NCBI GenBank assembly: GCA_020692945.1
Contig: JAIMJY010000001.1
Coordinates: 1-64,000 of the forward strand
Length of the DNA: 64,000 bases
Origin: Caldisericum sp.
Lineage (GTDB): Bacteria > Caldisericota > Caldisericia > Caldisericales > Caldisericaceae
Reading direction: 5' to 3'
Part shown: positions 1 to 60,580 of the stretch, in pieces
Numbering within the stretch: position 1 is the first letter of the stretch
Layout of the letters: every line of letters starts with the position of its first letter
Made by a program: the position numbers and the translations under genes
Notes under the pieces: model-generated
Database searches by the model: none
What the model saw: only the letters and a program-made list of their open reading frames with translations
Told to the model about the DNA's origin: nothing

Positions 1-242
1 CATTCATATTGTTATTATATTATTATATACAATTTTTCAGAAATTCACATGAATTGCCTCACATAAAAACTATCCCTTCAGAAGTGGAAAAATAGAAAAA
101 AAGCATACTCAAAAAAATTGCAAGTTTTCAAATTGCCTCACCAAGAAAAGAGCAAGAAATTTACGTAAGGCAACACGTATTACGAGTCAACGCTGCTTTC
201 ATATTACAAAAATATTCAAATCTGTTATAATATACAAAAAAT

Positions 243-390
243 AACCTGCTGAAAAAGAGTACAGGTTACAAAGGAGTAAACCTGCTGAAAAGAAGCGCAG
301 TTTTAATCTTTTCTAATCCACGATCATTATCAATGGATTCCAGAGGAATAAATCTGCTAAAAAAGAGTGCAGATTACAAAGGATTAAAGG
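243..390 (+). repeat. Cluster of 3-4 units of the dispersed hairpin repeat. Units: AACCTGC-TGAAAAAGAGTA-CAGGTT-ACAAAGGAGTAAA; a degenerate unit at 281-308; a palindromic variant at 316-340; AATCTGC-TAAAAAAGAGT-GCAGATT-ACAAAGGATTAAAGG. The last unit supplies the AAGGAG Shine-Dalgarno for proS.
   Basis: Read directly in the sequence: inverted-repeat stems with complementary variation, conserved loop and linker, same family as the other listed loci. Confidence 0.8.
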
Positions 391-2180: not shown

Positions 2181-2222
2181 TTAATCCTTTGTAATCCGTA
2201 CTCTTTTTCAGCGGATTGATTA
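2181..2222 (-). repeat. Single unit of the dispersed hairpin repeat, minus orientation, between convergent proS and fabF
   Basis: Reverse complement reads AATCCGC-TGAAAAAGAGTA-CGGATT-ACAAAGGATTAA. Confidence 0.8.
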
Positions 2223-12625: not shown

Positions 12626-14429
12626 TGGTTACAATATTTTCTATACTAAGACCATATTTATCAAGGAGAAAATTCCTTTTACCCTGTTCGGGGTAAAAGT
12701 CCCCTATTCCTAAGTTAATTACATTAATATTTTTTTTATAGAGAGCATAGGCAATCTCTCTGCCGAAGCTTCCTTTCACAATATTATCTTCGATTGTGAT
12801 GACTTTCTTGGAAGTTTGAGCGGCACTTAGAATTAGTTCCATATCGATTGGCTTGATGAAACGTGCATTTATAAGTCCGACTGAAAACCCCCTGCTTTCG
12901 ATTATTTCTTTTGCCTTAAGTGTTCTTTCGAACATTGCCCCAACTGAAACAAGCAGCAAATCATTTCCATGAGACCAAAGTTCCCCTTTGCCAACCTCAT
13001 ATTGTGAACGAGAATCAAAAGAAGGTTCAGCGCTTGCTTTTGGGTATCTAATAATAAAAGGATGATTTGTTTGGAGTGCCAGATGGAGAAGGCGTTTAAG
13101 TTCCTCCCCATCCTTTGGTGCTGAAACAACGAAAGAAGGAATAATTTGAGTAAACGAGGTATCGAATATACCCTGGTGAGTAGGGCCATCATCTGAAACA
13201 ACTCCACTCCTATCAAGAGCAAAAACAACTGGAAGATTAAGGATACCGACATCATGAATCAATTGATCATACGCTCTTTGAAGAAACGTAGAGTAAATAG
13301 CAACAACAGGTTTAAAGCCGTTCTGTGCTAAGGCAGCTGCGGTTGAAACAGCACACTGTTCGGCTATTCCGACGTCAATGAAGCGTTCAGGAAAAGCTTT
13401 TTTGAATAGATCTGTTCGAGTTCCATCAGGCATAGCCGCCGTGATAGTTACAACCTTCGGGTCTTGTGTCCCTTCTTCGACAAGTGCTTCGCCAAAGTAA
13501 TCAGAGAAACTCTTTGCTCCTTTTTTACCGTTAAATATACCTGTTTCAACGTCAAAAGGGGATGAGCTGTGAAACTTTGTAGGGTTGTCCTCTGAGCTTT
13601 GGTAACCTTTGCCTTTTTTTGTAACAACATGAACTACCGTTGGTTGATAAATATTCTTTGTTCTTTCAAATGTATCAATGAGTTCTTTGATGTTGTGTCC
13701 ATCAATAGGGCCAATATACGTGAAGCCAAACTCTTCAAAGAGGACATTCTGCAGAAATAAATCTTTGATTGCAAGTTTTATTCTTCGGCCTATTTTTGTT
13801 CCTGGTGTTTTCCTTCTAAGGTTTTGATAAAACCTGGAAGAGCGAATACGAGAAAGATAACGAGAGATAGCACCAACATTATGTGCTATTGACATTTCAT
13901 TATCATTCAAGATAATTAGAACCTTCTTGCCAAAAGCGCCAAGATTGTTGAGTCCCTCGTAAGCCTCGCCACCTGTTAGAGCTCCATCGCCTATTACTGC
14001 GACTACCTCATAATTTTCTTTTTTAAGTTCTTTCGCTTTAATGAAGCCAAAAGCAATAGGGAGAGCCGTTGAAGCATGCCCTGCAATAAAACTATCGTAA
14101 GGGCTCTCATTTGGATCAGTGTATCCGCTTATTCCACCATACTGCCTTAATGAGTAAAAAGAATCCTTTCTTCCAGTGATTATCTTATGCGTGTATGCCT
14201 GGTGGCCAACATCAAAAATCAGCTTATCCTTCCTGAAATCAAATACGCTGTGAAGGGCAAGAGTAAGTTCAACAGTTCCAAGGTTAGAGGCAAGATGCCC
14301 CCCGTTCATTGAAACAGTTTCAATAATTAAATCCCTTATTTCCCCTGAAAGTACATTGAGTTCTTCAATCGAAAGCAACCTAAGATCACCTGGACTGTTT
14401 ATCCTATCTAAAAATTTTGGTTTTACCAT
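12591..14429 (-). CDS. dxs: 1-deoxy-D-xylulose-5-phosphate synthase. The ORF call extends to 14555, but the extra 42 codons are encoded by a copy of the dispersed repeat; the likely start is Met43 at 14429, preceded by AAAGGA.
   Basis: TPP-dependent transketolase-like protein. The canonical Dxs N-terminus (LDRINSPGDL) begins right after the internal Met. The upstream extension translates a repeat unit (LLRGIADYKRLKK). Confidence 0.88.
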   Translation of the reverse strand: MVKPKFLDRINSPGDLRLLSIEELNVLSGEIRDLIIETVSMNGGHLASNLGTVELTLALHSVFDFRKDKLIFDVGHQAYTHKIITGRKDSFYSLRQYGGISGYTDPNESPYDSFIAGHASTALPIAFGFIKAKELKKENYEVVAVIGDGALTGGEAYEGLNNLGAFGKKVLIILNDNEMSIAHNVGAISRYLSRIRSSRFYQNLRRKTPGTKIGRRIKLAIKDLFLQNVLFEEFGFTYIGPIDGHNIKELIDTFERTKNIYQPTVVHVVTKKGKGYQSSEDNPTKFHSSSPFDVETGIFNGKKGAKSFSDYFGEALVEEGTQDPKVVTITAAMPDGTRTDLFKKAFPERFIDVGIAEQCAVSTAAALAQNGFKPVVAIYSTFLQRAYDQLIHDVGILNLPVVFALDRSGVVSDDGPTHQGIFDTSFTQIIPSFVVSAPKDGEELKRLLHLALQTNHPFIIRYPKASAEPSFDSRSQYEVGKGELWSHGNDLLLVSVGAMFERTLKAKEIIESRGFSVGLINARFIKPIDMELILSAAQTSKKVITIEDNIVKGSFGREIAYALYKKNINVINLGIGDFYPEQGKRNFLLDKYGLSIENIVTIGESFIRGKKD

Positions 14430-14460
14430 TTTTTCCTTTAATTTTCTCAGTTTTTTTAAT

Positions 14461-14552
14461 CTCTTGTAATCTGCGATCCCTCTCAGCAGATTCCTTTTTT
14501 GTAATTTTAACTCTCTAAAGTTTATTTTTTTTTGCAATCGTGCCTTTGTAGT
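14461..14552 (-). repeat. Dispersed hairpin repeat (one full unit AATCTGC-TGAGAGGGATC-GCAGATT-ACAAGAG plus partial units) between ispA and dxs
   Basis: Stem, loop and linker architecture read directly; it explains the spurious N-terminal extension of the dxs ORF. Confidence 0.7.
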
Positions 14553-15442
14553 CACTTCATCCTGCCAAGCGTGAATTCTGCAAGCTCAATTATCGTTGTA
14601 TATTTGTTATTATAAGGTTTCAAAAAATCAACAGCTTTTAAGATGAGTTCTTGCGCAATATTTTTAGACTTCTCCACTCCGAAAAGGGCTACAAAAGTTG
14701 CCTTTTTGTTCTTCTTATCCTGTTGTGTTTCTTTCCCAAGGATTTCTGGAGAAGACGTCTCGTCGAGGACATCGTCAATAATCTGATAGCTTATACCGAG
14801 ATTTTCCCCGAACCTTGAGAGAGCAAGTTTCTCACTTTCGTTAACTCCTGCGAGTATTCCCCCTGTCCTGATTGCAAGAGAAATAAGGGAAGCAGTTTTC
14901 AGTCGGTCGATATAAGTGATAGTTTCTTCGTTGATTTCTTCATCGACACTGGAAATCATGTCCATTACCTGACCTCCCACGAGTCCCTTAACTCCGGAGG
15001 ACAAAGCAAAATTATTTACTACTTCAAGCAATAATTTTTCATCAAACAAATTTCTGTGAATTGGGTTTGACGCCATCTCGAAAGAATAAGAAAGCAAGGC
15101 ATCCCCTGCAAGGAGAGCCATATCGCTTCCATAAACCTTATGGCAACTTGATTTGCCTCTTCTCTCATCACTGTTATCCATTATTGGTAGATCATCATGT
15201 ATCAAGGAGTAAGTATGTATCATCTCAATCGCACAGGCAAAAGGAAGTATGTCTGCTTCGTTCTTACCGCTTGCAGAATATGTAGTAATTGCAAGAATAG
15301 GCCTAATTCTTTTGCCTCCTAAAAGCAAACTGTAAGCCATAGCTGCATAGAGAATTGAGTGCTCTTTTAAAGGAATGAGCGAAGACTCAAGCGCAGAATC
15401 AATAACTTTCTTCTTCTCCTCAAGATATTTAGTTATATCCAT
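14552..15442 (-). CDS. ispA: Polyprenyl diphosphate synthase (farnesyl/geranylgeranyl diphosphate synthase)
   Basis: 296 aa with first and second aspartate-rich motifs (LIHDDLPIMDNSDERRG; IIDDVLD). Confidence 0.85.
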   Translation of the reverse strand: MDITKYLEEKKKVIDSALESSLIPLKEHSILYAAMAYSLLLGGKRIRPILAITTYSASGKNEADILPFACAIEMIHTYSLIHDDLPIMDNSDERRGKSSCHKVYGSDMALLAGDALLSYSFEMASNPIHRNLFDEKLLLEVVNNFALSSGVKGLVGGQVMDMISSVDEEINEETITYIDRLKTASLISLAIRTGGILAGVNESEKLALSRFGENLGISYQIIDDVLDETSSPEILGKETQQDKKNKKATFVALFGVEKSKNIAQELILKAVDFLKPYNNKYTTIIELAEFTLGRMK

Positions 15443-17153: not shown

Positions 17154-17924
17154 GTGGATATGATGTCATTAGTATATTTAATACCCATAAGTTTAATTTT
17201 AATCATTATCTTTGCGCTGAGTATCAGAATCGTGCAGCAGTGGCAAAGAGGTGTTGTCTTTTTCCTTGGAAGGTACAAGAGGGAACTTAAGCCCGGGTTC
17301 AACTTAATAATACCTATTTTTGAATATGTTCGGTATGTAGATGTGCGTACTCGCACAATGGATGTTACCCCACAAGAAGTTATGACCAAAGATTCTGTTC
17401 CAGTTAAAATTGATGCGGTGGTTTACTACAGGGTGTTTGACGCGATGAAATCGATTATAGCCGTTGAGAATTTTGCTTCAGCATCTACCCTTATGGCACA
17501 GTCTAAGTTAAGAGATGTCGTGGGGAAATACGACCTTGACACTCTTCTTGCAAGTAAGGATAAAATAGGAAAAGAAATCCTTGAAGCCTTGCAGGGGCCA
17601 ACAGATAATTGGGGAATAACCATTGTAAGTGTTGAGATTAAGAATATTGAGCTGCCTGATAATATGAAGCGTGCAATGGCAAAAGAAGCTGAAGCAACAA
17701 GGGAGAAGAGGGCTCGTCAAATCAAAGCATCTGCAGAAGAAGATGCGAGTTTAGCTTTTCTAAAAGCGGCCAAAAATATGTCAGAAGCACCTGGAGCAAT
17801 TCTTTTAAGGCAACTTCAAACATGGCAGGAGATTGGTGCAGAACAAAACAGCCTGATTATCCTTGTCCCAACTGAATTTGCAAACGCAATCGGGAGACTT
17901 CAGTCTAAAAAAGAAGAAAAATAA
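17154..17924 (+). CDS. SPFH/band-7 (stomatin/prohibitin-like) membrane protein
   Basis: 256 aa, N-terminal transmembrane helix then SPFH domain and coiled-coil (EAEATREKRA...). Confidence 0.8.
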   Translation: MDMMSLVYLIPISLILIIIFALSIRIVQQWQRGVVFFLGRYKRELKPGFNLIIPIFEYVRYVDVRTRTMDVTPQEVMTKDSVPVKIDAVVYYRVFDAMKSIIAVENFASASTLMAQSKLRDVVGKYDLDTLLASKDKIGKEILEALQGPTDNWGITIVSVEIKNIELPDNMKRAMAKEAEATREKRARQIKASAEEDASLAFLKAAKNMSEAPGAILLRQLQTWQEIGAEQNSLIILVPTEFANAIGRLQSKKEEK

Positions 17925-18052
17925 TCTACTGAGAAAGAGTATAGATTACAGAAGATTAAATTCACACACTTTTCCAGTGGATTTATTTGCACTCTTTTCG
18001 GCAAATGTGCCTGCATTCTTTCTCAGCGGGTTACAAAGGATTAAAGGAGTAT
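17923..18052 (+). repeat. Cluster of about 3 units of the dispersed hairpin repeat in mixed orientation, downstream of the SPFH gene
   Basis: AATCTA-CTGAGAAAGAGTA-TAGATT-ACAGAAGATTAAA; reverse unit ATTTGC-CGAAAAGAGT-GCAAAT; third unit ending in ACAAAGGATTAAAGGAG. Confidence 0.8.
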
Positions 18053-20350: not shown

Positions 20351-21500
20351 TCAAACAAAGAGTATAAGTATGGATGCAATTACCGCAAGTATTCCACCGA
20401 AGTAGAAAGGAGTTTTAGGTGCAATATATTGATACAAGATTCCTGCAATAAATGATGCAGGGAAAGCCGTAATACTAACACCAAAGTTATAAATTCCGTA
20501 TGCAGTTCCTCTTGAATCATCGTCTTCAACAAGATCAGCGACAAAAGCTTTTTGTGCCCCTTCAGTAAACGCATAATAAATCGCGTATATTATAAAGAAA
20601 ATCCAAAGAAATGAGGAAATTTTTGTCAGAGCAAAACCAAGATATGAAAGTCCATACACTGTATAGCCAATGATAATTGTCTTCTTCCTTCCGATCTTAT
20701 CAGAAAGTGCCCCAAGTGGTGCAGAAAGAAGTCCATAAATAGTGGAGTGAAGAGCCCATAGAGCAAGGATAGTCGTGGCCAAAAGCCCTAGATTTTCTGC
20801 ATACATTGTTATAAAAGCATCGGAACTATTACCAAGCGTAAAAATAGTAACAACGGCAATAAAAAAATAGAAACGTTTGCCAAGGTCGAATTTAGATGAA
20901 CTTTTAGCCTTCTTTATTGTTTCTTTAAATTCATGCTCACGAACAAAAAGCATCAAAATTAGTGCAATAAAAGCAGGTATCAAGGCATATTTAAAAACTG
21001 CCTGGTAATTTGTCTTGCCAAGTTTATTAAGCACCCATATACCAAGCAGAGGGCCAACTGCAGCACCAAAGAGTATCAAGTGCTCTATGAAAACCAAAAT
21101 ACAGCCCTCTATTCGTTTCGTTTGTATAAGATGAAATCAGTGCATCTCTTGGTGCAGTCCTTATTCCCTTGCCTATTCTTTCAGTTACCCGGATAATTAG
21201 GATACCAAAAGGTGTTACCGTAAAAGGCAAAAAGATTTTTGTAAACGTTGACTCTGCGTATCCAAAGAAAGCAAGCCATTTTCTGTTTTTAAATTTATCT
21301 GAAAAATATCCAGAAACAATCTTTAAAGTCGAAGATGTTGTTTCTGCAAGCCCTTCAATAACTCCGATAAATGCTCCACCAGCCCCAATTGACTCAAGGA
21401 AATGCGGCAAAACCTTCGTTATCATTTCAGATGAAACATCTGTGAAGAAACTTACCAATCCGAGCAAAACGACATTTAGATTAATTTTTCTTTTCGTCAA
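20351..21500 (-). pseudogene. MFS transporter split by a single-base frameshift into an N-terminal ORF (21027-21500) and a C-terminal ORF (20351-21097)
   Basis: The two overlapping ORFs together give a roughly 400 aa, 12-TM MFS protein. The frames switch inside the sequence GATACTCTTTGGTGCTGCAGTTGG (plus strand about 21068-21078; the G/A run is given on the minus-strand coding sequence, so the plus-strand run is an A run). A one-base indel in that short homopolymer would restore ...ALDTL(x)GAAVGPLLG. Confidence 0.6.
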
Positions 21501-23430
21501 AGCCTCCTATATACTTATACCCTTTAAAGGCTTTTGCAAATTCTCTGAATTCAGGTGAAGCAAGTGTATCGATGAACAAACGCACACTTTTCTTTTGCAG
21601 CTCGCTTTTTAAAATCAACAAATCGTACTCTTCGTCTTTAACGCTCACGAAGTCCAAATCAAACATATCTGCAACATATCTTATACCCATGCCACAATCA
21701 GCACCCCCAAACTTAACTGCGTTGGCAATTCCAAGATGGGTATACTCTTCATACTCATACCCTGCAATATCCGATGCAGGTATTTTATTGCGTTTAAGTA
21801 AATAGTCAAACAATACTCTTGTACCAGACCCCTGTTGTCTGTTAACAAATTTAATTCCATTTCGTATAAGATCAGAAATGGACAAGATGTTTTTAGGATT
21901 ACCTCTCTTTAAAATCAAACCCTGGTCTCTTAGACTAAATTTAACAACAATAATATCTTTCGAAACGTACTTTTCTAAAAAAGGCTTATTGTAAGTGCCT
22001 GTCATGTCATCAAAGAGGTGCACAGATGAAATAGAGCACTCCCCTCTTTCTAAGGCAAGAAGCCCTCCAAAACTTCCAGTATTGATAACTCCAATCCTAA
22101 AATTAGTATTCCTTTTCGCAATGTAATCGACAAGCGCATCAAGCAGCGGGTCATTACTTCCGATAAAGAGCAGTTGGTTTTCAATATTTTGTTTGGACTC
22201 CAATAAATTTACTTTCACTTTAGACCCACTTTCGATACCTTCAACATGATTAGGAATAACAAAAATACCATCGGCATTGGTTACGCTTGTTAGTACTCCT
22301 GCGCCCTTCTTAAGTGGCACTGCAACTAATTTGCCACCGACATCGCCCAATCTCACCCTTATGTATTCCTCAACTCCAATCGAAGATGGAATAGGACGAA
22401 GAACAAAAGCCTCAACTTCCTCATTTGACCCTTTATCGTCAGTTAAGGTTCTAATTGCTTCCTCTAAAAATATTCTGGTATCCAGGTAGCAGGATACTGG
22501 AAATCCAGGCATTCCAATGAGAGGCTTATTATGAGAAACAGCGAGAACAAATGGCTTGCCTGGTTGAATAGAAAGTCCATGTATTAAAACTTCACCGACT
22601 ATTGCAAAAATTTTTGAAACAAGGTCTTTATTTCCCTTAGCCGAGCCTCCAACAACAACAATAAAATCGGCATTACTTACATTTGATAAAATAGCTTTTG
22701 AAATTAACTCTTCATTATTAGGAAGAATTTCCGTAATGTAAGCCGCTCCTCCTGCCCCCTCTACAATATTTTTAATCATATAGGAGTTGGTATCAACGAT
22801 ATCGGGAACTGCAAGCTTCTCAAAGGGGGCTTTTATTTCCTCTCCCGTGGGAATAATACAAACTACTGGCCTTCGTTTTACAAAAACACTTTTAACTCCA
22901 CTTGCTATCATTACGGCTATATGCTCTGCCCGAATCTTTTGGTTTGGATGAATTAAAATATCGCCAACCGAAAAATCGTCACCTATCATTCGTACATTCT
23001 TGTATGCTGAAACTGGAAATGGTACTTTTATTCCTTTGTAATCCGCGCTCTTCTTCAGCGGATTTATTGACTTCATTGATAACTCTACATCCTCTATCAT
23101 GACAACGCCGTCAAAACCTTTAGGAATTGGGTCTCCTGTATTAACGGGAATAGCATCATTTGACAAAAATAATTCCTTAGGGTTTTTGATGTTCGCATCG
23201 GCTGTTTTGGAAGAGTGAATTGCAAATCCATCAACCGCAGAGGCATTGTAAGCTGGGGAACAAAGTTTTGCAACAACAGGGTCAGCAACAACTCTCCCAA
23301 GAGATTCAAAGGTTGAAACTTCTTCGTTGCTCAGAGGATACGCTTTTACTGCTTCTTTAACAACTTTATTCCAAATTTCGAGAGCTTCGTCTAAAGTACG
23401 TTTTTTGAGGAAAATTTCTCTTTCTACCAT
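21481..23430 (-). CDS. moeA: MoeA-like molybdopterin molybdenum/tungsten transferase fused to a C-terminal periplasmic-binding-protein-like (molybdate/tungstate-binding-like) domain
   Basis: 649 aa. N-terminal MoeA domains (MoCF biosynthesis GSAKG-like block, VVVGG) and a PBP-like roughly 230 aa C-terminus. Contains an in-frame repeat-derived insert SINPLKKSADYKGIK. Confidence 0.8.
   Translation of the reverse strand: MVEREIFLKKRTLDEALEIWNKVVKEAVKAYPLSNEEVSTFESLGRVVADPVVAKLCSPAYNASAVDGFAIHSSKTADANIKNPKELFLSNDAIPVNTGDPIPKGFDGVVMIEDVELSMKSINPLKKSADYKGIKVPFPVSAYKNVRMIGDDFSVGDILIHPNQKIRAEHIAVMIASGVKSVFVKRRPVVCIIPTGEEIKAPFEKLAVPDIVDTNSYMIKNIVEGAGGAAYITEILPNNEELISKAILSNVSNADFIVVVGGSAKGNKDLVSKIFAIVGEVLIHGLSIQPGKPFVLAVSHNKPLIGMPGFPVSCYLDTRIFLEEAIRTLTDDKGSNEEVEAFVLRPIPSSIGVEEYIRVRLGDVGGKLVAVPLKKGAGVLTSVTNADGIFVIPNHVEGIESGSKVKVNLLESKQNIENQLLFIGSNDPLLDALVDYIAKRNTNFRIGVINTGSFGGLLALERGECSISSVHLFDDMTGTYNKPFLEKYVSKDIIVVKFSLRDQGLILKRGNPKNILSISDLIRNGIKFVNRQQGSGTRVLFDYLLKRNKIPASDIAGYEYEEYTHLGIANAVKFGGADCGMGIRYVADMFDLDFVSVKDEEYDLLILKSELQKKSVRLFIDTLASPEFREFAKAFKGYKYIGGFDEKKN
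23031..23068 (-). repeat. Dispersed hairpin repeat unit inserted in frame inside the moeA-PBP CDS
   Basis: Reverse complement reads AATCCGC-TGAAGAAGAGC-GCGGATT-ACAAAGGAA and is translated as INPLKKSADYKG inside a loop of the MoeA N-terminal domain. Confidence 0.8.
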
Positions 23431-24647
23431 ATCTCAAATTTCACCTTTTCTCCTTTATACAACCCTTCTTTGTTTTGAGGAATAACGAAAAACCCATTTC
23501 CTTTTTGCAAAGTGGTTACAAAAGCTGACTCAGAAAAAATTGGTTGAATAATATTTCTATCGCTATCCACTGACAAGAATCCAATAACAATTTCGCTTCG
23601 TCCTTTCTTAGACGGGACGTTTTCTGTAAGTTCTCCAATTACAGAGATCCTATCAGAAACTAAAGACAACTTTTTCATTATCAGATCTTTAACAATGATA
23701 AGGTATATCAAAGTAGCAGCTAACGGATTACCAGATAATCCTGCAATGAGTTTGCCTTGCACCACTCCAAAGACAGAAGGCTTTCCCGGGGAAACATTGA
23801 GGCCGTGAATCAATACGCCAGGTGAACCCATTTTATTGATCACTGACACAGTAAAATCAAAATTGCCTTTGCTCGTTCCTCCGCTCATAACAACTACGTT
23901 ATTTTCTGATAATGCCCGCTTCAAGTTTAATTCCAAAATATCTGGGTCATCTTTCAAAATGCCATAGTCTGTTGGGGTGAACCCGTCTTTAAGCATTTGG
24001 CTCATTAGAGAAATTCTGTTGTAATCGTATATTTTACCTATGGGCAATGGGTACTGGTCTGATAGTTCATCGCCAGTTGAGAACAATCCAATCTTTACAG
24101 GCTTAAAGACCTTAATAAGCTTAATTCCTGCACTTTTTAGTACTCCTATAGAGCGTGGAGTGATTCTTTCACCTTTTTTCAAAACCAATTCACCATATTT
24201 AACGTCAACCCCAGTTCGCAAAACATTTTTATTCGGCGCAACGTCTTTCATCACAAAAAGCGAATTGTTTAAAGAATCCGTATATTCAATCATGACGACG
24301 CAATCTGCGCCTTCTGGCAGATAGCCGCCGGTTGGTACAAATACTGCAGTCCCCTTTTCTAATAGTACATCTGGTTTCGTACCTATTTTTACTTCTTTGA
24401 GCACTGAAAGCATTGCAGGGTTAGAAGCATTTGCACCTTTGATGTCTGAGGATCTCACGGCAAAACCATCAACAAGAGATTTGTCGAAAGGTGGGATATC
24501 AAGTATTGAGGAAATGTCCTCTGCTAAAAAATATCCTGAGGAATAATTGACGGGAATACTTTTAAAAAGGGGTTCAATTGAAAAGGAATCCAAAAGTTTA
24601 TCTTGAACTTCGCCAACTTGAACTACCTTGAGGAATTTTTTGCCCAC
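23424..24647 (-). CDS. moeA: Molybdopterin molybdenumtransferase MoeA (second paralogue)
   Basis: 407 aa canonical MoeA domain organisation (GGTSKG-like motif GGTSKGNFD). Confidence 0.85.
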   Translation of the reverse strand: MGKKFLKVVQVGEVQDKLLDSFSIEPLFKSIPVNYSSGYFLAEDISSILDIPPFDKSLVDGFAVRSSDIKGANASNPAMLSVLKEVKIGTKPDVLLEKGTAVFVPTGGYLPEGADCVVMIEYTDSLNNSLFVMKDVAPNKNVLRTGVDVKYGELVLKKGERITPRSIGVLKSAGIKLIKVFKPVKIGLFSTGDELSDQYPLPIGKIYDYNRISLMSQMLKDGFTPTDYGILKDDPDILELNLKRALSENNVVVMSGGTSKGNFDFTVSVINKMGSPGVLIHGLNVSPGKPSVFGVVQGKLIAGLSGNPLAATLIYLIIVKDLIMKKLSLVSDRISVIGELTENVPSKKGRSEIVIGFLSVDSDRNIIQPIFSESAFVTTLQKGNGFFVIPQNKEGLYKGEKVKFEIW

Positions 24648-25558
24648 GATAATAAATCCTCAATTACGTTTTCAATTTTTTGGTTAATTGAAAGGTCTGC
24701 CTTTGAAAAAATTGGAGCGTTTGGATCTGCATTAAAAGCAATTATATGCTTTGCATGAACTGCATCAATGTGCTGGATAGCACCAGAGATTCCAAAAGCA
24801 ATGTACAGTTCTGGATTAATAGATAGCCCGGTGTCACCCACTATCCGATTAGCATCGATCAGTCCTCTATCGCCAACAGGCCGTGTGCAGCAAATTTCAG
24901 CACCAATAGATGATGCAAATTCTTTTATCTTGGGGATCAACGATTCTTTGACTCCCCTTCCAACACCCACAACAACTTTAGATTCAATAAGTGGATTATT
25001 TTCCAGGCATTCGCTTGAAATACAATCGAGTGAATGAGTTTTAGTCACCTGAATGACTTCGCAAATTCCTTTGGAATCCGCACTCTTTTTCAGCGGACTT
25101 ATTTTTGATTTTGTTTCTTTGTAATTGTTGCCCTTTTTCAAACGATTATAAGGAAAGCATTTCTTGTCGTCCTTTAAAATTAGAAGCGCTGGCTTTTTTT
25201 GAGAGAAAACTTCTGCAACAAAATTTTCCCAGCCGTAAACAAGTCCAATAATTTTACCATCCTCAAACTTGATTTCTTTGCTGTGAGCAATAAGCCCGAG
25301 AGCATTCTTACCTGCAAAATAGGATGCAGTTTCTTTTACAACTGTTTCATCTGAAAAGATTATCGCGTCAAAATCCATAATCCCTGGTATATTCGAGATG
25401 AAATCTGTTCCAATGAGAGGGTCGTTTATAGCCAGGGAAGGAATAAAATCTGCACTACCTTCTTCACTTGAAAAGCTTGCAGAAAACACTTCGGGGAACA
25501 TTCCACGAAGCTTGGAAATGATACCGTTATCTTCTTTAAAAATTCCCAATATCTTCAT
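24623..25558 (-). CDS. etfA: Electron transfer flavoprotein alpha subunit (FixB-like)
   Basis: 311 aa with C-terminal FAD-binding domain motifs (YIAFGISGAIQHIDAVHAKHIIAFN). The interdomain linker carries two in-frame repeat units. Confidence 0.85.
   Translation of the reverse strand: MKILGIFKEDNGIISKLRGMFPEVFSASFSSEEGSADFIPSLAINDPLIGTDFISNIPGIMDFDAIIFSDETVVKETASYFAGKNALGLIAHSKEIKFEDGKIIGLVYGWENFVAEVFSQKKPALLILKDDKKCFPYNRLKKGNNYKETKSKISPLKKSADSKGICEVIQVTKTHSLDCISSECLENNPLIESKVVVGVGRGVKESLIPKIKEFASSIGAEICCTRPVGDRGLIDANRIVGDTGLSINPELYIAFGISGAIQHIDAVHAKHIIAFNADPNAPIFSKADLSINQKIENVIEDLLSWAKNSSR
25066..25150 (-). repeat. Two tandem dispersed-repeat units in frame within etfA
   Basis: Units AAGTCCGC-TGAAAAAGAGT-GCGGATT-CCAAAGGAA and AATCGTT-TGAAAAAGGGC-AACAATT-ACAAAGAAA, translated as NRLKKGNNYKETKSK-ISPLKKSADSKGI. 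Confidence 0.8.
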
Positions 25559-32953: not shown

Positions 32954-32987
32954 TAAATCACCTCTCTAAAAATAAAGTATTCTTTAT

Positions 32988-33177
32988 TCCTTTGTAATCC
33001 ATACTCTTTCTCAGTGGATTTACTCCTAGGGTATATAATATTGTATAAGATTTTCAATATATTTCAAGTGGCTTATTTTTGTAGATGACCTTTGCTTTTT
33101 CACTTTTTTTAACTCTTCTGTAACCTGCGATCTTTCTCAGCAGATTTATTTCCACCTTTTCAGCAGATTTCTAAAGC
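32988..33177 (-). repeat. Three dispersed-repeat units (32988-33030 and 33115-33177) in the upstream region of the rho operon, forming the left border of the accessory island
   Basis: Reverse complement reads AATCCAC-TGAGAAAGAGTA-TGGATT-ACAAAGG, then AATCTGC-TGAGAAAGATC-GCAGGTT-ACAGAA and a partial unit. Confidence 0.8.
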
Positions 33178-36033: not shown

Positions 36034-36363
36034 ATGAAAAAAGATAAAAAGTTTCAAGGCCAAGGAGTGCAAAAATGGAAACATCCGGGAGGAAAGTTAA
36101 GAGAACTGGGGGCAGACAAACTTTCTGATGCAGAGCTGTTGGCTATTCTTATTTCAACAGGCACGAAAAATAAGTCGGCAGAAGCAATAGCCAATGAACT
36201 TATTAGTAAATTTGGATCCTTTCGTGGCTTAGCGAATCAACCGCTTTCTAAGCTTCTTGAAATTAACGGACTCGGTGATGTCAAAATTATACGTATCGCT
36301 GCTACTTTTGAAATAGCGCGTAGAATTGCTAACGAAATAGTTAAAACTTATGAGCAAAAGTAA
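36034..36363 (+). CDS. RadC N-terminal domain-like helix-hairpin-helix protein lacking the JAB/MPN domain
   Basis: LSDAELLAILISTGTKNKSAEAIANELISKFGSFRGLANQPLSKLLEINGLGDVKIIRIAATFEIARR closely matches the RadC N-terminal HhH region. Its stop overlaps the start of the downstream RM gene by 14 nt. Confidence 0.7.
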   Translation: MKKDKKFQGQGVQKWKHPGGKLRELGADKLSDAELLAILISTGTKNKSAEAIANELISKFGSFRGLANQPLSKLLEINGLGDVKIIRIAATFEIARRIANEIVKTYEQK

Positions 36364-39903: not shown

Positions 39904-39924
39904 ATTTCAAAAGGGAGGTTAAGA

Positions 39925-40906: not shown

Positions 40907-41069
40907 TCAGAATATAATAAAGTTTTATTGTGTGGAGCAAATTATGGACGACCAGGAAAAACAAAAAATTGACGTTATAATGAAAGACTATGAAATACTA
41001 AAAACCTATTCTACTCCAGTCGGAAAAAAAGTCAAACAATTTGAATCAGACCTTTTGTTAAGTTTCATA

Positions 41070-41172
41070 AACCTGCTGAGAATGATCGTGGGTTCCAAAG
41101 GATTAAATCCACTGAAAAGGATCGTGGATGAATCCGATGAAAATGAGCTCGGATTTCAAAGGAGTGACAAAA
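41070..41172 (+). repeat. Three dispersed-repeat units forming the right border of the accessory island, upstream of tilS
   Basis: AACCTGC-TGAGAATGATC-GTGGGTT-CCAAAGGATTAA; ATCCAC-TGAAAAGGATC-GTGGAT; AATCCGA-TGAAAATGAGCT-CGGATTT-CAAAGGAGT. Confidence 0.8.
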
Positions 41173-52167: not shown

Positions 52168-54045
52168 TCATTTTCCTTGCCCAGAGAAAATACTTCTATT
52201 TATTGCAGTAAACCCGGAAGAGGCAACCTCAGCAATTTTATCGCCTTCATTTAAACCTGAAACAATTTCAACAAATTCGTCTGATGAAACTCCTGTGACA
52301 ACTTCAACTCTTTCAAAAATCTTTTCATCAAGCGTTAAATAGACAAACTTTTTTCCATTTTCTTCGAGGATAGCGTCAATGGGTATGCCTATTGCGTTAT
52401 CCTTCTCTTGGACGGTAATGTCAATGTTGACACTCAAACCACTTTTTAGGGAAATATTCGATGAATTTATAGCAGTCTGCACTTTATATGCTTGAACTCC
52501 TTGATTTGTAACCGTAGAAACGAAAGAAATGGATTTAACGCTTCCATTGATACTCTGCTCTGGTAAGGCATCAAAAGAGTACTGAACAGATTGCCCTGGT
52601 TTTATCTTCACTGTGTCAATCTCGTCAGAATAGGCCTCTGCAAAAAAATGCATTGTATTACCAATTATACAGATCACCGCGCCAGGAGAAACAATATCCC
52701 CCTCGCTCGGTTTGACCATAAGAACCGTACCATCAAACGGAGCTTTTATCGTGAATTTACTAAGAGTGTCATTTGCAACTTGAAGGTTTGCTTTTGACTG
52801 CTCTACTTGAAGTTCAGCTTGTATAACCTTATCGTCTCCAATGTCAAACTGCAATTTTGCGTTTGAAAGTGTTGCCTCAGCCTGAGAAACGCTATCTGAG
52901 GCCTGTTCAACCTGCAAATGCCTAATTTCTATCGTATCATTGCTTGTAGAAGCATTCTTATTCACCATATCAAGATTAGCCTTTGCAACCTCAAGTTGCG
53001 ATTCTGCTAAGTGTACCTGGTTCTCGAGTTGAATCTTCTGGACTGACTTAGTATTTTGAGCTTTAACTGCCTGGTTGTAGTTTTCCTGGGCAATTTGAAG
53101 TGAATTTTTGGCTTGTTCTACCTGGTTTTCGGCAGTATTTATTTGGTCGTCAGACGCAGGACCATTGATTATTTTCATCTTTTCCAAACTATTCGTTGCT
53201 ATCGTAACATTACTTTTAGCGATTTCCACCTGAGATTCGTAGATCGTTATTTCTTCCTCTGGTGTTTTTGGGTTGTTGGCAGCTTCGTTTAGCTTTTCCT
53301 CAGCAATTTTTTCGTTCTCTTTTGCCTGGTTGAGTTGCTCATTTGCAGTGCTTATATCCTGAGCGGTTGTTAGAGATTCCTTCATTCTTTTTAGGCTGAG
53401 CTGAGCAATTGCAAGAGAAAGTTCAGCATTTTTTTCCTGAAGTTCTGCAATCTTAACAGATTCGGGAGACGTATCGGTTTGATCAAAGGACTCGTAGTTG
53501 AGCCTGGCATTTGAGAGATTTATTTCGGCTTGTTTTACAGATTCTTCTGCTTGAGTTAACTGGCTGGAATGATTATCCGTTTTCTGAGTAATTTCCAAAT
53601 TTTTCCGTGCAATGGCTAACGACTCATTTGCATTTTTTAGTCCAGCTTCTGCCTGCAAAACCGCTGCGTTAGTATTGGACTTTTTTGTTATGTTTAAACT
53701 CTCTAAAGCAAGATTGTAGTTAATCTGCGCAATTTGATAATTGGAAGATGCCTGCGTAGAATCAATATAAAGTATAACATCGCCTTTTTTTACAGAAGTT
53801 CCATCCTTTTTATATATCTTTGAAACCTTTCCCTGCACTTCCGAGTAAACAGTAATCTCAGGATCAGTTTTTAATGTCCCTGTCAAGCTCACAACGTTTT
53901 GTATGTCCATCCTACCTACAGTATAAATTCCAGTTTGTTGAGAAGATGAAGAACTGTTGCATCCATAAAAAACTACAGTGCCAACAATCAAAATGGCTAA
54001 CAACAGCAATGTTTTTACTCTTCTGGAATCTGCAATCTTTTTCAT
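52168..54045 (-). CDS. Periplasmic adaptor (HlyD/MacA-type membrane fusion protein) with an unusually long coiled-coil
   Basis: 625 aa with N-terminal TM or lipobox region, roughly 350 aa of heptad-rich Q/A/E/N sequence and C-terminal beta-barrel/MPD domains. Confidence 0.75.
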   Translation of the reverse strand: MKKIADSRRVKTLLLLAILIVGTVVFYGCNSSSSSQQTGIYTVGRMDIQNVVSLTGTLKTDPEITVYSEVQGKVSKIYKKDGTSVKKGDVILYIDSTQASSNYQIAQINYNLALESLNITKKSNTNAAVLQAEAGLKNANESLAIARKNLEITQKTDNHSSQLTQAEESVKQAEINLSNARLNYESFDQTDTSPESVKIAELQEKNAELSLAIAQLSLKRMKESLTTAQDISTANEQLNQAKENEKIAEEKLNEAANNPKTPEEEITIYESQVEIAKSNVTIATNSLEKMKIINGPASDDQINTAENQVEQAKNSLQIAQENYNQAVKAQNTKSVQKIQLENQVHLAESQLEVAKANLDMVNKNASTSNDTIEIRHLQVEQASDSVSQAEATLSNAKLQFDIGDDKVIQAELQVEQSKANLQVANDTLSKFTIKAPFDGTVLMVKPSEGDIVSPGAVICIIGNTMHFFAEAYSDEIDTVKIKPGQSVQYSFDALPEQSINGSVKSISFVSTVTNQGVQAYKVQTAINSSNISLKSGLSVNIDITVQEKDNAIGIPIDAILEENGKKFVYLTLDEKIFERVEVVTGVSSDEFVEIVSGLNEGDKIAEVASSGFTAINRSIFSGQGK

Positions 54046-54135
54046 TTGCTCTTTACCTCCCTGTTATAATTAAAATCAGTTCTTTTAATCCCCTGGAATC
54101 CACTGATAAGGATCGTGGCTTTACTCTCTTCTTAC

Positions 54136-54236
54136 TTCTTTGTAATTGCTGCCTTTGCAATTTATCGCATTTCTTTTCAGCGATTCCAAAAGAATAAATC
54201 TGTTGAAAAAGAGTGCAGATTATAAAAGAATAAAGA
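54136..54236. repeat. Two or three dispersed-repeat units in mixed orientation between the efflux operon and the NHL-protein gene
   Basis: AATTGC-AAAGGCA-GCAATT-ACAAAGAAG (minus strand); ATCGC-ATTTCTTTTCA-GCGAT; AATCTGT-TGAAAAAGAGT-GCAGATT-ATAAAAGAATAAAG. Confidence 0.7.
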
Positions 54237-57435: not shown

Positions 57436-60400
57436 TCACGGGTATTTCTCGCCGTAATGCTTTGCAAGCATGAAAAAATCGATGCTGCTTATAATGCCGT
57501 CAAAATTAAGGTCACAGGAGGCGTTGTATCCTGTATCACCCTTTTTTTTCAAGAAGCTTGCTTTGAGAATGTTCAAGTCAAGATTATTGATTGCGTTATC
57601 ATTGTTCAAATCAAAGAAATGTGAATAATCAGAAATATTATAATACAGTTGTGGAAGGACAAAACCTAAAAGCTGAGAACTCTGAACAGAAGAAACGCCA
57701 ACAAAACCAGACCCATTGTCCAACGCTTTCAGTTTTAATGAAGCTATCACGCTCTTGTTTGTGAATGAGCTAGTTTCGGATGTCAAAGAAATTTTAACTA
57801 CCCCGTTCTGGATATCGGAGGTAAAATTTATGTCATCTGCCAGGCTTTTCCCTTTCTGACATTCGCTGACCGCAAAGTGGTACGGGTCGAAATTGAAGTT
57901 AAAGTTAAGGCTCCCCGCCAGTTTTAAAGAATCAACGTATACGTCAAGCCAAAATTCATTTCCGTTCTTCAATAAAAGCGTAAAATTGTTTTGAGGAACA
58001 ATGTATATGGTGTTGGAAGGAGACTGTGATACAGTAAATGTACCACTTGAGGAAGAAGTAACTTCTGTTGGCAAGACAATCTTTGCACCTTCGTTAACGG
58101 TTGCTTCTATGTACTCTACTTTATAGTAATAGGTACCGTTGTCGTACTTGAAATCTTGCGATAAATCCATTAGAGAGAGGTTTGCGGAATAATCGCCAAC
58201 GTAAATAGGGGCTTGGTCAAATATTGTATCAATCAACTTGCCCGAAAAATCATAAACATCAACCTTTACCTCCTCAGCAACGTTTCCGTTAAAAGTGGAA
58301 TTGTCATCAGACATGCTTTGTCCTATGCCAACCGTAAACTGTACTACGAGGTTGTTTTGAGGAGTCAAACCGGTGCCTGATATCTTAACGTTGTTTAGTA
58401 CAGGCTGGATTGAGGCATTGGCAATGTAGACAAAAGGAATGTGTAAATTTATTGAGCTTGAGTCTTTGAGGTAAATATATCCGTAGGCCTCCGACGACTC
58501 TTTCAAAGCAGAAAAATTAGCAGTGAAAGTAGCAGTGCCGTTTACTGGCACACTAACAATAAAAGGCAGAGTAATTGAAATTTTGTCATTTGAAACCATT
58601 TGATAAGAAGTAAAGAAAGTTTTTGCATTGCTTGATAAGTTAGTCACAGTAAACGTTACTGACTTAGTTAAATCACCGTTACCAAAAATCACTGAGGATG
58701 GTTTAATGAAATAATTTGAATTGATAGCATTTAATGCATTTATTCTGCCCGCTCCTTGCATTAATGGAGAAAAAGGAAGCCCGGAGTACGGGTTGATGAG
58801 TACGTCAGAGGAATTCATCAATAAAGCCTTTGCATCATCAGGGCTGATGTTCGGCCTCCACTGCTTTAGCAAGGCAGAAACGCCTGCAACTACTGGAGAA
58901 GCCATTGAAGTGCCACTCATTACGCCAACTTTATCTGCCGGAAGCGTTGAACTAACATTCACTCCAGGAGCTACCAAATCAGGTTTGAAAAACAAATCTG
59001 AAGTTGGTCCGTCAGAGGAGAAATCAGCGATCCGTCCGAGGCCATATTTATTCTGAATGTATATACCTAAAGATAGATTCTCCTTTAGTGTTTGCCCGTC
59101 AGTGAAAGAAACAAATAGAAACGGTATGAACCCAGTTGCTTGAGGGTTACTTTCAGAAGATAGTTGTATACTGGGGATACCACTAACATTGTTATATACT
59201 ATTACTCCGATTGCTCCTGCGCTCTTAGCGTTGAGATCTTTATCACCAAAATATATCTTACCTCGTTCAATGAAGGCAATTTTACCTTTAACGTCTTTCC
59301 CTTGAAAGTCACTTGGCTCTCCAAGACCGCAGTAGACCATATCATAATTTCCATCATTAAAAAATGGAGATTCTGGAGGGTAATTAGCAAGAATTTGCTT
59401 ATTACCAGAGGTTATAACTCCTGTGATGCTATCATCGGTTGCCCCGACTCCGATAGCTTTGTCCACAGAAGCAGGGGAGGAGAGCGGAAATTCCACTGAA
59501 TCAGAGCGCGAGCCCTTATTCCCTGCAGCAGCCACAACAACTACCCCGCTGCCAACCGCATTTCTTACGGCTAAAGACTGAGGGTCGTCTCCAAAAGCCT
59601 GCCCTCCAACCGTACCAATAGATATGTTAATGATGTTACATTTATCCTTAACTGCTTGTTCGATGCCTTGAATTATTGTCGAAGTAGAGGTAGAATTATC
59701 GTTACCCGAAAATACCTTATAAGCTCTTATTTTTGCATCAGGAGCAATGCCATCGACAGAACCTGCTATTATGCCAGCCACATGTGTACCATGGCCGTCG
59801 GAATCTTTTGGATCAGCATCGTCATCTGCAAAATCATAACCTCCGATCACTTTAGAGTTTGGAAAATTGCCTCCTCCAAGCTCTTTGTCAGTGTAATCCA
59901 CACCGGTGTCGACAATACCAACTACAATGCCTTTTCCTGTGATATAGTTATTGGAAGAATCTTTCTTTTTGTTCACGACATCTGATTGTATAACTTTTGT
60001 GAGAGTAGTCCTCTCAAGATAAACTGGATTATCTTCAAAGATACCGCTAACATCTTTAAAATTGGCAATGCCTTTGATATCAGTGCCTTTGACCTTGCAA
60101 GCAACAGCATTTACGGTGTAGGAAAATGAAAATCTTGTTTCCCCACCAAGTGAAGAAACTAAATCTGAAAACTTTTCGTGGAAACTTTGGATTTGTGCTT
60201 CATAGGAGTCCGCTTCATTCCTGTTTACAAATGACAGCAGCTTATAAGCAAAGCTTTTTCTGTACTCTAAAACTGGTGGTTTGTTGAACACTACAATAAC
60301 TTGTTTAAATTCATTTGAATAAAAGTCAAATTTTCCGAAAAATTTTGCACTTATTCTTTCATAATCCACGATCTCTATCAGTGGATTTACTCTCCCGTAC

Positions 60401-60465
60401 GATGACGGAAGTGAGCTCATTAGAAATAATATGGTTAGCATTAAAGCTACAACAACCCTTTTCAT
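57436..60465 (-). CDS. Subtilisin-like (S8) serine protease with PA/fibronectin-like domains and a C-terminal dockerin-type module. The pro-region carries an in-frame dispersed-repeat unit.
   Basis: 1009 aa. Signal peptide. Catalytic triad contexts VGIVDTGVD, HGTHVAGII and GTSMASPVVAG. C-terminal duplicated calcium-binding loops DLNNDNAINNLDLNIL and DLNFDGIISSIDFFML resemble a type I dockerin. Confidence 0.85.
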   Translation of the reverse strand: MKRVVVALMLTILFLMSSLPSSYGRVNPLIEIVDYERISAKFFGKFDFYSNEFKQVIVVFNKPPVLEYRKSFAYKLLSFVNRNEADSYEAQIQSFHEKFSDLVSSLGGETRFSFSYTVNAVACKVKGTDIKGIANFKDVSGIFEDNPVYLERTTLTKVIQSDVVNKKKDSSNNYITGKGIVVGIVDTGVDYTDKELGGGNFPNSKVIGGYDFADDDADPKDSDGHGTHVAGIIAGSVDGIAPDAKIRAYKVFSGNDNSTSTSTIIQGIEQAVKDKCNIINISIGTVGGQAFGDDPQSLAVRNAVGSGVVVVAAAGNKGSRSDSVEFPLSSPASVDKAIGVGATDDSITGVITSGNKQILANYPPESPFFNDGNYDMVYCGLGEPSDFQGKDVKGKIAFIERGKIYFGDKDLNAKSAGAIGVIVYNNVSGIPSIQLSSESNPQATGFIPFLFVSFTDGQTLKENLSLGIYIQNKYGLGRIADFSSDGPTSDLFFKPDLVAPGVNVSSTLPADKVGVMSGTSMASPVVAGVSALLKQWRPNISPDDAKALLMNSSDVLINPYSGLPFSPLMQGAGRINALNAINSNYFIKPSSVIFGNGDLTKSVTFTVTNLSSNAKTFFTSYQMVSNDKISITLPFIVSVPVNGTATFTANFSALKESSEAYGYIYLKDSSSINLHIPFVYIANASIQPVLNNVKISGTGLTPQNNLVVQFTVGIGQSMSDDNSTFNGNVAEEVKVDVYDFSGKLIDTIFDQAPIYVGDYSANLSLMDLSQDFKYDNGTYYYKVEYIEATVNEGAKIVLPTEVTSSSSGTFTVSQSPSNTIYIVPQNNFTLLLKNGNEFWLDVYVDSLKLAGSLNFNFNFDPYHFAVSECQKGKSLADDINFTSDIQNGVVKISLTSETSSFTNKSVIASLKLKALDNGSGFVGVSSVQSSQLLGFVLPQLYYNISDYSHFFDLNNDNAINNLDLNILKASFLKKKGDTGYNASCDLNFDGIISSIDFFMLAKHYGEKYP
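60363..60392 (-). repeat. Dispersed-repeat unit in frame in the S8 protease, just after the signal peptide
   Basis: Reverse complement AATCCAC-TGATAGAGATC-GTGGATT, translated VNPLIEIVDYE in the same reading frame as the moeA and etfA copies. Confidence 0.7.
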
Positions 60466-60484
60466 TGCGTCCTCCTAACTTTTA

Positions 60485-60580
60485 TTCTTCTGTAACCCGA
60501 GATCATTTTCATCGGATTTATCTATGCACTTCTTTCCAGCGGATTTACTCCTCTGTATCCGCACTTCTTACCAGAGGATA
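60485..60580 (-). repeat. Two degenerate dispersed-repeat units in the divergent promoter region between the S8 protease and the HAD hydrolase genes
   Basis: Reverse complement AATCCGA-TGAAAATGATC-TCGGGTT-ACAGAAGAA and a second partial unit with the CTCCTCTGTA linker. Confidence 0.6.

Follow-up and report, generated by a model that had tools for sequence, protein, structure and literature searches.

A 36-nt, REP-like palindromic repeat very probably inserted in frame within the moeA-PBP gene of Caldisericum sp.

About 20 copies of a short palindromic repeat are present in the 64 kb of Caldisericum sp. DNA analyzed here (the whole stretch, hereafter the window), and one of them falls within the protein-coding gene moeA-PBP (21481..23430, minus strand). 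The original prediction held that this copy was inserted in frame, raising the question of whether the corresponding loop of MoeA was supplied by the repeat or is a native loop that resembles it. The 37-nt string quoted in that prediction occurs once in the window, at 23029-23065 on the minus strand, where chance would give 0 matches (100 shuffles); the site stood, while the coordinates given for it, 23031-23068, were 2-3 nt off. A profile built from 13 other window copies matched the moeA site at all 38 positions, comprising stem, loop, and tail, with E = 6.7e-11, and therefore the match is far beyond chance. The site ranks second among the window matches of the repeat profile.

The moeA copy consists of one 36-nt unit (AATCCGCTGAAGAAGAGCGCGGATTACAAAGGAATA; 23029..23064, minus strand) that leaves the ORF intact. 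In its hairpin, a stem of 7 bp (AATCCGC/GCGGATT) closes a loop of 11 nt, and a tail of 11 nt follows; computed as RNA, the hairpin has a dG of -8.8 kcal/mol. The unit encodes residues N123-I134 (NPLKKSADYKGI). In the protein context (...MIEDVELSMKSINPLKKSADYKGIKVPFPV...), the S and I preceding the insert and the K following it are flanking MoeA residues. Tandem copies spaced at 36/72 nt, together with three filled/empty pairs differing by exactly 36 nt, fix the length of the unit at 36 nt, so the insert comprises 12 residues rather than the 15 originally supposed; the claim that unit length is divisible by three was correct. The boundaries of the insert can be shifted by up to 4 nt, since the stretch immediately 5' of it (..TCAATA) has the same ending as the unit (..GGAATA). 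The 649-aa host protein has MoeA domains I-IV and a PBP_like domain (domain matches: MoeA_N, MoCF_biosynth, MoeA_C, and PBP_like), and retains every column that is invariant across 118 homologues. An identical protein was found in 4-5 independent MAG assemblies, so the insert is no assembly artefact.

The window protein has 33 aa between E113 and R147, two invariant residues, as compared to 21-22 aa in 29 of its 31 next-closest orthologues (P0004-P0032), which have a turn of only 4-5 aa at the insert site. The excess over the 21-residue form is 12 aa, i.e., exactly one unit, and in silico removal of the unit leaves E-L-SMKS-I-K-V, collinear with E-I-KDNT-F-K-I of an orthologue. An AlphaFold model of MoeA-PBP (mean pLDDT of 88.9), whose predicted fold matches the solved structures of MoeA, gephyrin E, and Cnx1E, places the insert between two strands, 116-119 and 131-136. 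Residues 121-130 have a mean pLDDT of 53, and the insert is the sole low-confidence stretch of MoeA domain II. According to this model, the insert would occupy a surface loop position that is compatible with the MoeA fold. With an intact ORF, the profile match, and 12 aa more than orthologues, in-frame insertion of the repeat was borne out, and the short turns of orthologues and the modeled loop between two strands agree with the proposal that canonical MoeA proteins have a short turn here.

At the same site, P0002 and P0003, which at 63% identity are the closest orthologues of all, have loops of 28-29 aa (+24/+25 residues), in which no nucleotide similarity to the repeat was found; neither nhmmer (E up to 100) nor blastn-short detected residual repeat signal in the long moeA loops or etfA linkers of these closest relatives. 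These loops show that the moeA site tolerates indels. The protein database held no closer empty-site moeA relative between 63% and 100% identity. A short ancestral turn would be the parsimonious reading, short of proof because the loops of P0002 and P0003 are long and no close relative with an empty moeA site was found. Not a single repeat copy occurs in the 22-kb loci that are syntenic in the closest relatives, so the family expanded after that split.

Across the family, the 7-bp stem encloses a conserved loop of 11 nt (TGAAAAAGAGY), and each unit also has a tail, TACAAAGGAATA. Among 60 distinct copies, 95.7% of stem cells were paired, and double-sided stem changes numbered 63, as compared to 26 in shuffles (0/500 shuffles reached the observed value). 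Pairing collapsed once the partner was slid by 1-3 columns. These alignments indicate that compensatory changes maintain the stem. Stem covariation can also arise from a hairpin requirement in DNA transposition or from sub-family structure. The consensus of the 60 copies has a nearly invariant flank, T27-A28-C29-A30 (TTACA, or TGTAA on the other strand). It lacks GTAG and CGTC tags as well as terminal inverted repeats, its 5' end (AATCYRC) being unlike its 3' end (AAGGAATA). At 36 nt the unit spans 12 codons, and four of its six frames are stop-free. A unit either stands alone or directly abuts the next, giving a 36-nt period without spacers. A CRISPR array was ruled out by the lack of unique spacers between units, and ordinary tandem repeats were rejected because TRF found no array at the repeat sites. 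Similarly, a phage origin was dismissed on finding 0 matches to the repeat pattern in IMG/VR, and a known RNA family on finding only tmRNA with Rfam at gathering thresholds; a relaxed scan of the 241-386 cluster returned noise.

Of the 20 window copies, about 17 lie outside genes or at their ends. Beyond moeA, an in-frame unit in etfA (25064..25101, minus strand; ORF 24623..25558) encodes SPLKKSADSKGI in the linker before the FAD-binding domain, where the repeat peptide reads KISPLKKSADSKGI, and a more diverged in-frame unit in the S8 protease gene (60352..60389, minus strand; gene 57436..60465) encodes RVNPLIEIVDYERI directly after the signal peptide. The original prediction that the moeA frame is reused elsewhere was upheld for both of these but not for the "40932 ORF", a doubtful gene. 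This 104-aa ORF spans the intergenic cluster at 41068..41165 (plus strand), where three units stand in tandem or abut one another between mazF and tilS; it overlaps tilS and is probably not a real gene. A profile match marks a unit in the ispA-dxs spacer (14457..14494, minus strand), and the true start of dxs is the ATG at 14429; the repeats inflate ORF predictions, as in the 40932 ORF and a false N-terminal extension of dxs. A single unit (2182..2219, minus strand) lies 3 nt past the fabF stop codon, and one full unit clustered with several partial ones (17921..18043) follows the stop codon of an SPFH gene. Clusters with units in both orientations occur upstream of proS (241..386; 3-4 units) and between an NHL-repeat gene and an HlyD-family gene (54016..54232; full and partial units). 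The minus strand also carries a group upstream of an FTCD_C gene (32985..33170), with full units at 32985-33022 and 33111-33148 plus a partial one, and the 5' leader of the S8 protease gene includes one full unit with partial units (60483..60580, minus strand).

In related populations of Caldisericum, units are also found inside pheT, a mobA-like gene, and IS transposases, and relatives were compared for presence or absence of the unit, as originally suggested. A difference of exactly 36 nt separates the two members of each filled/empty pair (L052/L049, L071/L077, and L018/L015); etfA has one unit in the window as compared to three (+72 nt) in near-identical MAGs, and the mobA-like gene has one unit in one population and two in another. 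The 1-unit etfA allele could be a collapse of short-read assembly. Repeats of this family break or collapse such assemblies, as seen in N-gaps in L003 and L004 and in many contig ends at copies. In L052 the copy is read in a frame with a stop codon, which cuts short an IS transposase; therefore, insertion is blind to frame, with selection doing the filtering. TAA is found on both sides of the copy in moeA, L071, and L018 but not in etfA or L052, flanks that would fit a 33-nt element with a 3-nt duplication or, equally, insertion beside A/T-rich sequence. Pfam searches found no transposase, RAYT, Y1 transposase, or other mobilizing gene beside the copies (24 window ORFs, 20 of which flank repeats).

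Copies in moeA, etfA, the S8 protease gene, the mobA-like gene, and pheT all fall in open frames and in loops, linkers, or termini. The genes are distinct, have known functions, and encode housekeeping or secreted proteins; four of the copies share the same sense frame, and the pheT copy is the sole exception. Relative to the local gene, about 33 sites are sense and 13 antisense by a partly manual reading, an overall sense bias of roughly 2.5:1 that rests on crude gene calls, whereas spacers between co-directional genes have 9 sense to 8 antisense per site. The shared frame and the sense bias could reflect something beyond simple tolerance.

How, then, is the moeA segment best explained? It could be a native, fast-evolving, expanded loop of this MoeA-PBP subclade that resembles the repeat by coincidence or compositional convergence, and the 28-29 aa loops of P0002 and P0003, together with a range of 21 to 48 residues for the E113-R147 segment across 118 homologues, are in keeping with such a loop. 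However, neither coincidence nor convergence accounts well for a match to the family profile at 38/38 positions, an excess of exactly one unit, and recurrence of the same nucleotide unit in unrelated genes and spacers, and we consider this explanation highly improbable and effectively refuted. The original prediction had named native loops in relatives, with no similarity to the repeat, as a sign that the match was coincidental; such loops do exist in P0002 and P0003, but the E-value of 6.7e-11 argues against coincidence.

Two other explanations concern why the copies are kept. In one, selection would act on RNA, the sense hairpin and the ACAAAGGA tail (Shine-Dalgarno-like or GGA) serving as a binding, processing, or stability signal in operon mRNAs, with the moeA and etfA copies retained for that role and the peptide a by-product. 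Covariation of the stem alongside conserved loop and tail sequences is consistent with this, as are the excess of sense sites and the placement of copies in leaders, within-operon spacers, and directly after stop codons; in addition, the antisense hairpin is followed by UUUAUU and is terminator-like, which could explain antisense avoidance. Yet sense and antisense sites are nearly even in co-directional spacers (9 to 8), Rfam has no matching family, the covariation has the alternative sources given above, and copies vary between close populations and are absent from syntenic relatives, as for dispensable DNA. Hence, an RNA role appears improbable. The other explanation, that NPLKKSADYKGI is a functional short linear motif recruited into several proteins, e.g., as a recognition or localization tag, draws on the shared frame and orientation in moeA, etfA, the S8 protease gene, the mobA-like gene, and two transposase genes. 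However, the hosts are unrelated and include decaying transposases, copy number differs between near-identical strains, pheT uses a different frame, and the insert is of low confidence in the AlphaFold model, without defined structure. Furthermore, a peptide search found no conserved protein family: a concatenated repeat-peptide query of a 5.8-billion protein set gave one marginal match (E = 0.45), although single 12-aa inserts cannot reach significance in a set of that size. We regard a peptide motif as extremely improbable. Considering all of this evidence, the moeA segment is very probably a copy of a lineage-specific, 36-nt, interspersed palindromic family that is REP-like and that entered the gene by in-frame insertion.

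There are precedents for such an insertion. Rickettsia palindromic elements (RPEs) occur in frame within protein genes (Ogata et al., 2000, as summarised in PMC10969869), and intragenic REPs in known genes encode 10-30 extra residues (Di Nocera et al., 2013; PMC3733652). Like RPEs, the Caldisericaceae unit is a dispersed palindrome, found between genes and in frame within unrelated housekeeping genes whose ORFs are preserved. The parallel to RPEs drawn in the original prediction is valid as an analogy, given the in-frame copies and preserved ORFs of moeA, etfA, the S8 protease gene, pheT, and the mobA-like gene, but implies neither homology nor membership. RPE-1 measures about 100-150 bp and codes for 30-50 aa (PMC10969869), as compared to 36 nt and 12 aa here; a CGTC tag, present in the short RPE-4 and RPE-6 (PMC3733652), is missing from the Caldisericaceae unit; and the latter amplifies in tandem, has no sequence similarity to RPEs, and resides in a free-living member of the Caldisericota rather than an obligate intracellular alphaproteobacterium. 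The unit agrees with REPs in size class (20-40 bp) and in its stem and loop (7 bp and 11 nt, within the reported 5-13 bp and 2-20 nt; PMC3733652), and also in being mostly extragenic, in clustering in both orientations, and in having some copies right next to stop codons and an occasional one within a gene. It differs from REPs in having a TTACA flank in place of the GTAG/CGTC tag, in the absence of a RAYT among the 24 window ORFs scanned, and in its head-to-tail arrays of strict 36-nt period, where REPs form predominantly head-to-head dimers. Caldisericota is not among the REP phyla listed in PMC3733652. MITEs such as Correia, ERIC, and BOX (PMC10969869) are likewise small, non-coding, A/T-rich repeats with possible in-frame fusions and RNA hairpins; however, the Caldisericaceae unit is far shorter than typical MITEs, its internal hairpin is its only inverted repeat, and any target-site duplication is uncertain.

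For the family to which the moeA copy very probably belongs, we propose multiplication by whole 36-nt units, either into new A/T-rich sites, often beside TAA, or in tandem. The element would be non-autonomous, its DNA hairpin moved by an enzyme encoded elsewhere, and local expansion and contraction may occur by slippage or recombination between units. In moeA, a unit would have entered the 4-residue beta-turn of MoeA domain II, giving a 16-residue loop (SMKS + INPLKKSADYKG) and leaving the rest of the protein untouched. Copies in permissive loops and linkers of housekeeping proteins would escape purifying selection when their frame is open and preferably hydrophilic (as in NPLKKSADYKGI), and the inserted peptide would be a neutral passenger rather than a functional module. 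A further proposal, to which we assign a small chance, is that the unit is a coding-compatible module, with 12 codons, stop-free frames, and a hydrophilic sense-frame peptide shaped inside genes, whose covarying hairpin and TTACA flank would be recognized by an enzyme that binds ssDNA or RNA and differs from known RAYTs. Such a module might bring about rapid, unit-wise lengthening of loops in free-living Caldisericota, as in etfA (1 vs. 3 units) and possibly in the sister moeA loops (+24/+25 residues).

The phenomenon itself is known from Rickettsia and from REP elements; the repeat family and the phylum are new for it. The best-known cases of palindromic repeats colonizing essential genes in frame come from Rickettsia, with its reduced genomes, and from REP-rich Proteobacteria, and the Caldisericota case is a clean example, with a 12-codon unit, in a deep-branching, free-living phylum. 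In practical terms, the repeats disturb short-read assembly and ORF prediction. Since the unit is 12 codons long, whole units are gained or lost between close populations, and copy number in etfA varies, the family constitutes a natural experiment on the tolerance of protein loops to insertion and on how selfish DNA supplies new loop sequence.

The 37-nt string placed inside moeA by the original prediction has a single occurrence in the window (23029-23065, reverse strand), 2-3 nt from the coordinates first proposed, and its chance expectation in dinucleotide-preserving shuffles was 0. It is enclosed by the ORF of MoeA-PBP (21481..23430, reverse strand; 649 aa), which matched MoeA_N (residues 12-178), MoCF_biosynth, MoeA_C, and PBP_like domains and whose translation around the insert is ...GVVMIEDVELSMKSINPLKKSADYKGIKVPFPV... 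Read by codon, the repeat unit (23064-23029) is AAT CCG CTG AAG AAG AGC GCG GAT TAC AAA GGA ATA, so that its 36 nt encode 12 residues, N123-I134, rather than the 15 originally counted. This copy was the second-best match in the window to the nhmmer profile of the family (E = 6.7e-11). A stand-alone second MoeA paralogue (23424-24647, reverse strand; 407 aa) lies directly upstream, overlaps the fusion gene by 7 nt and carries no repeat unit. Downstream, one additional T within a T-run (~21070) divides an MFS transporter gene (20351-21500) into ORFs of 157 and 248 aa. The same T occurs in L003, a near-identical MAG locus, and the gene is intact (382 aa) in L001, L002, and L004; the additional base is a sequencing error or else a genuine frameshift polymorphism.

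In an alignment of 118 MoeA-PBP homologues, we counted the residues between the invariant E113 and R147. There were 33 in the window protein and 21 (22 in two) in 29 of the 31 next orthologues (P0004-P0032; 46-54% identity), an excess of exactly 12 residues; more distant homologues had 21-48. Without the 36 nt, the protein reads E-L-S-M-K-S-I-K-V, collinear with E-I-K-D-N-T-F-K-I. The two closest orthologues, P0002 and P0003 (63% identity), had 46 and 45 residues in this segment (+25 and +24), and their loops sit exactly at the insertion site (L007/L005 10331-10453). No nucleotide likeness of these loops to each other or to the repeat was detected, not even residual similarity, and no family copies were found in the syntenic 22-kb loci (L005, L007, and L008). 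Therefore, the moeA site is a hot spot of tolerated indels. The loops of P0002 and P0003 may have arisen independently or may be older inserts that have decayed; +24 residues equal the length of two units, no more than a hint at a decayed two-unit insert. The copy in the window, which is close to the consensus, is recent. Since the identical 649-aa protein is encoded by 4-5 independent MAG assemblies, the insert is not an assembly artefact. The interpretation first offered, an in-frame repeat insertion in moeA, was essentially right, and the finding is real.

An AlphaFold2 model of MoeA-PBP built on the 118-sequence alignment (mean pLDDT 88.9, pTM 0.80) showed a loop between strands 116-119 and 131-136, with a mean pLDDT of 53 for the 121-130 block and values <50 at residues 126-128. 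Foldseek against the PDB returned MoeA, gephyrin E-domain, and Cnx1E structures (E ~1e-33 to 1e-36), in agreement with a PDB sequence search, and Pyrococcus MoeA, as judged by eye, has a 6-residue turn (KREGSK) at the insert site. By comparison with E. coli MoeA structures, the insert-bearing hairpin would belong to domain II. Columns invariant in the 118 homologues are all kept in the window protein, as follows from the way the alignment was built, and this is consistent with a functional moeA-PBP gene.

A repeat search found related segments of 36-45 nt in the window, spaced 36 or 72 nt apart where they are in tandem. The nhmmer profile, made from 13 copies and run over the 64 kb, gave 18 matches at E < 0.001 plus several partial ones, at eleven places. 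The unit has the form TAA-AATCYRC-TGAAAAAGAGY-RYRGATT-ACAAAGGAATA, i.e., a 7-bp stem, an 11-nt loop, and an 11-nt tail. Across the window and related loci, 60 distinct full-length copies were compared: standard pairs filled 95.7% of stem cells, and double-sided changes occurred at four of the seven pairs (U-A/C-G at two, G-C/A-U at one, and C-G with a few A-U/U-A at the fourth). Compensated cells numbered 63 vs. 26 in shuffles (0/500 shuffles reached that value), and sliding the 3' partner by 1-3 columns reduced pairing to 16-43%. On either strand, the hairpin had a predicted energy of ~-7 to -9 kcal/mol in RNA form and of ~-6 kcal/mol in DNA form. The unit had no Rfam match and TRF reported no array at repeat sites; a CRISPR array was rejected because no spacers separate the units. 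A 57-nt variant, with a second small hairpin (AAATTGCAAAGGCGGCAATT) nested between stem and tail, is present in L011 (2586-2639) and in L013, L022, L048, L066, and L075. Read directly, four of the six consensus frames are open, and the peptide read from the favoured sense frame is hydrophilic and contains Pro and Gly.

The majority of window copies are extragenic. Units or clusters lie upstream of proS (cluster, 241-386), 3 nt past the fabF stop codon (2182-2219), in the ispA-dxs spacer (14457-14494; the dxs start is the ATG at 14429 by Pfam), after an SPFH gene (cluster, 17921-18043), upstream of an FTCD_C gene (32985-33170), between mazF and tilS (cluster, 41068-41165), between an NHL-repeat gene and an HlyD-family gene (cluster, 54016-54232), and in the S8 protease leader (60483-60580). 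Three copies are intragenic, all sense and in one common frame: that of moeA-PBP, one in etfA (25064-25101; KISPLKKSADSKGI) in the linker before the ETF_alpha FAD domain, and one in the S8 protease (60352-60389; RVNPLIEIVDYERI) directly after the signal peptide. The frame had been predicted for these genes and for an ORF at 40932, which is doubtful as a gene: its 104 aa run through the mazF-tilS cluster and overlap tilS. Mechanical ORF calls were inflated by units both here (40932-41246, largely three units) and at dxs (12591-14555, +42 codons). Just upstream of the 41068-41165 cluster is a defence-type cluster (36350-40886) comprising an Eco57I/MmeI-like fused restriction-modification methylase (1158 aa), a SocA/Panacea-domain antitoxin, and a MazF/PemK toxin. 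The window also holds a tmRNA gene (61784-62132, reverse strand; Rfam RF00023, 174.9 bits). In metagenome locus L032, a copy of it with 79% identity adjoins a repeat unit.

The four MAG loci with identical MoeA showed 6 single-base differences from the window in 8 kb. At the etfA site, L001 and L002 (1330-1440) have three units vs. one in the window, an in-frame gain of 72 nt that gives an EtfA of 335 aa vs. 311 aa; L003 and L004 have scaffold N-gaps exactly there. The middle unit of L001 uses a second open frame (KPAEEDRRLQRS). In the third unit of L001, the stem is chimeric and mismatched (CCTGC...GCGGA), a pattern that recombination between units would be expected to leave. The filled/empty pairs L052/L049, L071/L077, and L018/L015 each differed by exactly 36 nt, and two further site pairs by 34 nt and substitutions; TAA stands on both flanks in moeA, L071, and L018, but not at every site. 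An IS transposase that is complete in L049 is cut short at its C-terminus in L052 by a copy in a stop-containing frame. Insertion therefore takes no account of the reading frame, and the clean in-frame copies seen in housekeeping genes are those that selection has spared.

Searched with an exact degenerate pattern, the family was found in one of 185,579 GTDB species representatives (Caldisericum sp. CG2_30_36_11) and in 73 JGI metagenome contigs (~36% GC), none of the window's species, and in no IMG/VR contig. This sole GTDB genome and the names on the closest proteins identify the window organism as Caldisericaceae. In related metagenome contigs, a unit lies in pheT, in the linker between a catalytic-like domain and FDX-ACB, in an antisense frame (LFLCNPHSSSVDY), and others lie in a MobA-like nucleotidyltransferase gene (one in L014, two in L035). 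IS3-type and other rve (DDE) transposases carry several copies (L041 5553-7047; L062 72-929; L052 ~12527), several of them in frame and one directly after a W-E-I-D motif. In L012, L019, L025, L049, L063, L072, and other contigs, the same unit is joined to differing sequences on its left and right, and a copy marks the end of many contigs. This pattern reflects either rearrangements mediated by the repeats or short-read assemblies that are chimeric or broken at them.

Relative to the local gene, de-duplicated sites were 33 sense and 13 antisense by a crude ORF-based gene call, compared with 9 vs. 8 in spacers between co-directional genes; the window has ~15 sense and ~5 antisense copies. In antisense, UUUAUU follows the hairpin, which makes it terminator-like. 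We infer, from numbers that are soft, that this form could underlie the avoidance of antisense copies inside transcription units.

Palindromic repeats inserted in frame are the hallmark of Rickettsia palindromic elements (RPEs), and in-frame insertion of intragenic MITEs has been called "not unusual" in a review (PMC10969869). Di Nocera et al. catalogued REPs of 20-40 bp that lie inside known genes in several species, and set out both the GTAG and CGTC super-families and the link of these to RAYT transposases (PMC3733652). The 36-nt unit shares the geometry and genomic habits of REPs; it lacks the GTAG and CGTC tags, its invariant flank being TTACA, and no RAYT, or any other transposase, was in view among the 24 window ORFs scanned. 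Unlike classical MITEs, it has no terminal inverted repeats. The unit is a member neither of the RPEs nor of the tagged REP super-families or the classical MITEs. It works like RPEs and intragenic REPs, and the parallel with RPEs drawn in the original prediction holds as such a likeness, not as membership. In-frame insertion of palindromic repeats is already known. Full-text searches turned up nothing on Caldisericum repeats, and there appears to be no earlier description of the family itself, of its strict 12-codon modularity with in-frame variation in tandem copy number, or of its presence in the free-living Caldisericota.
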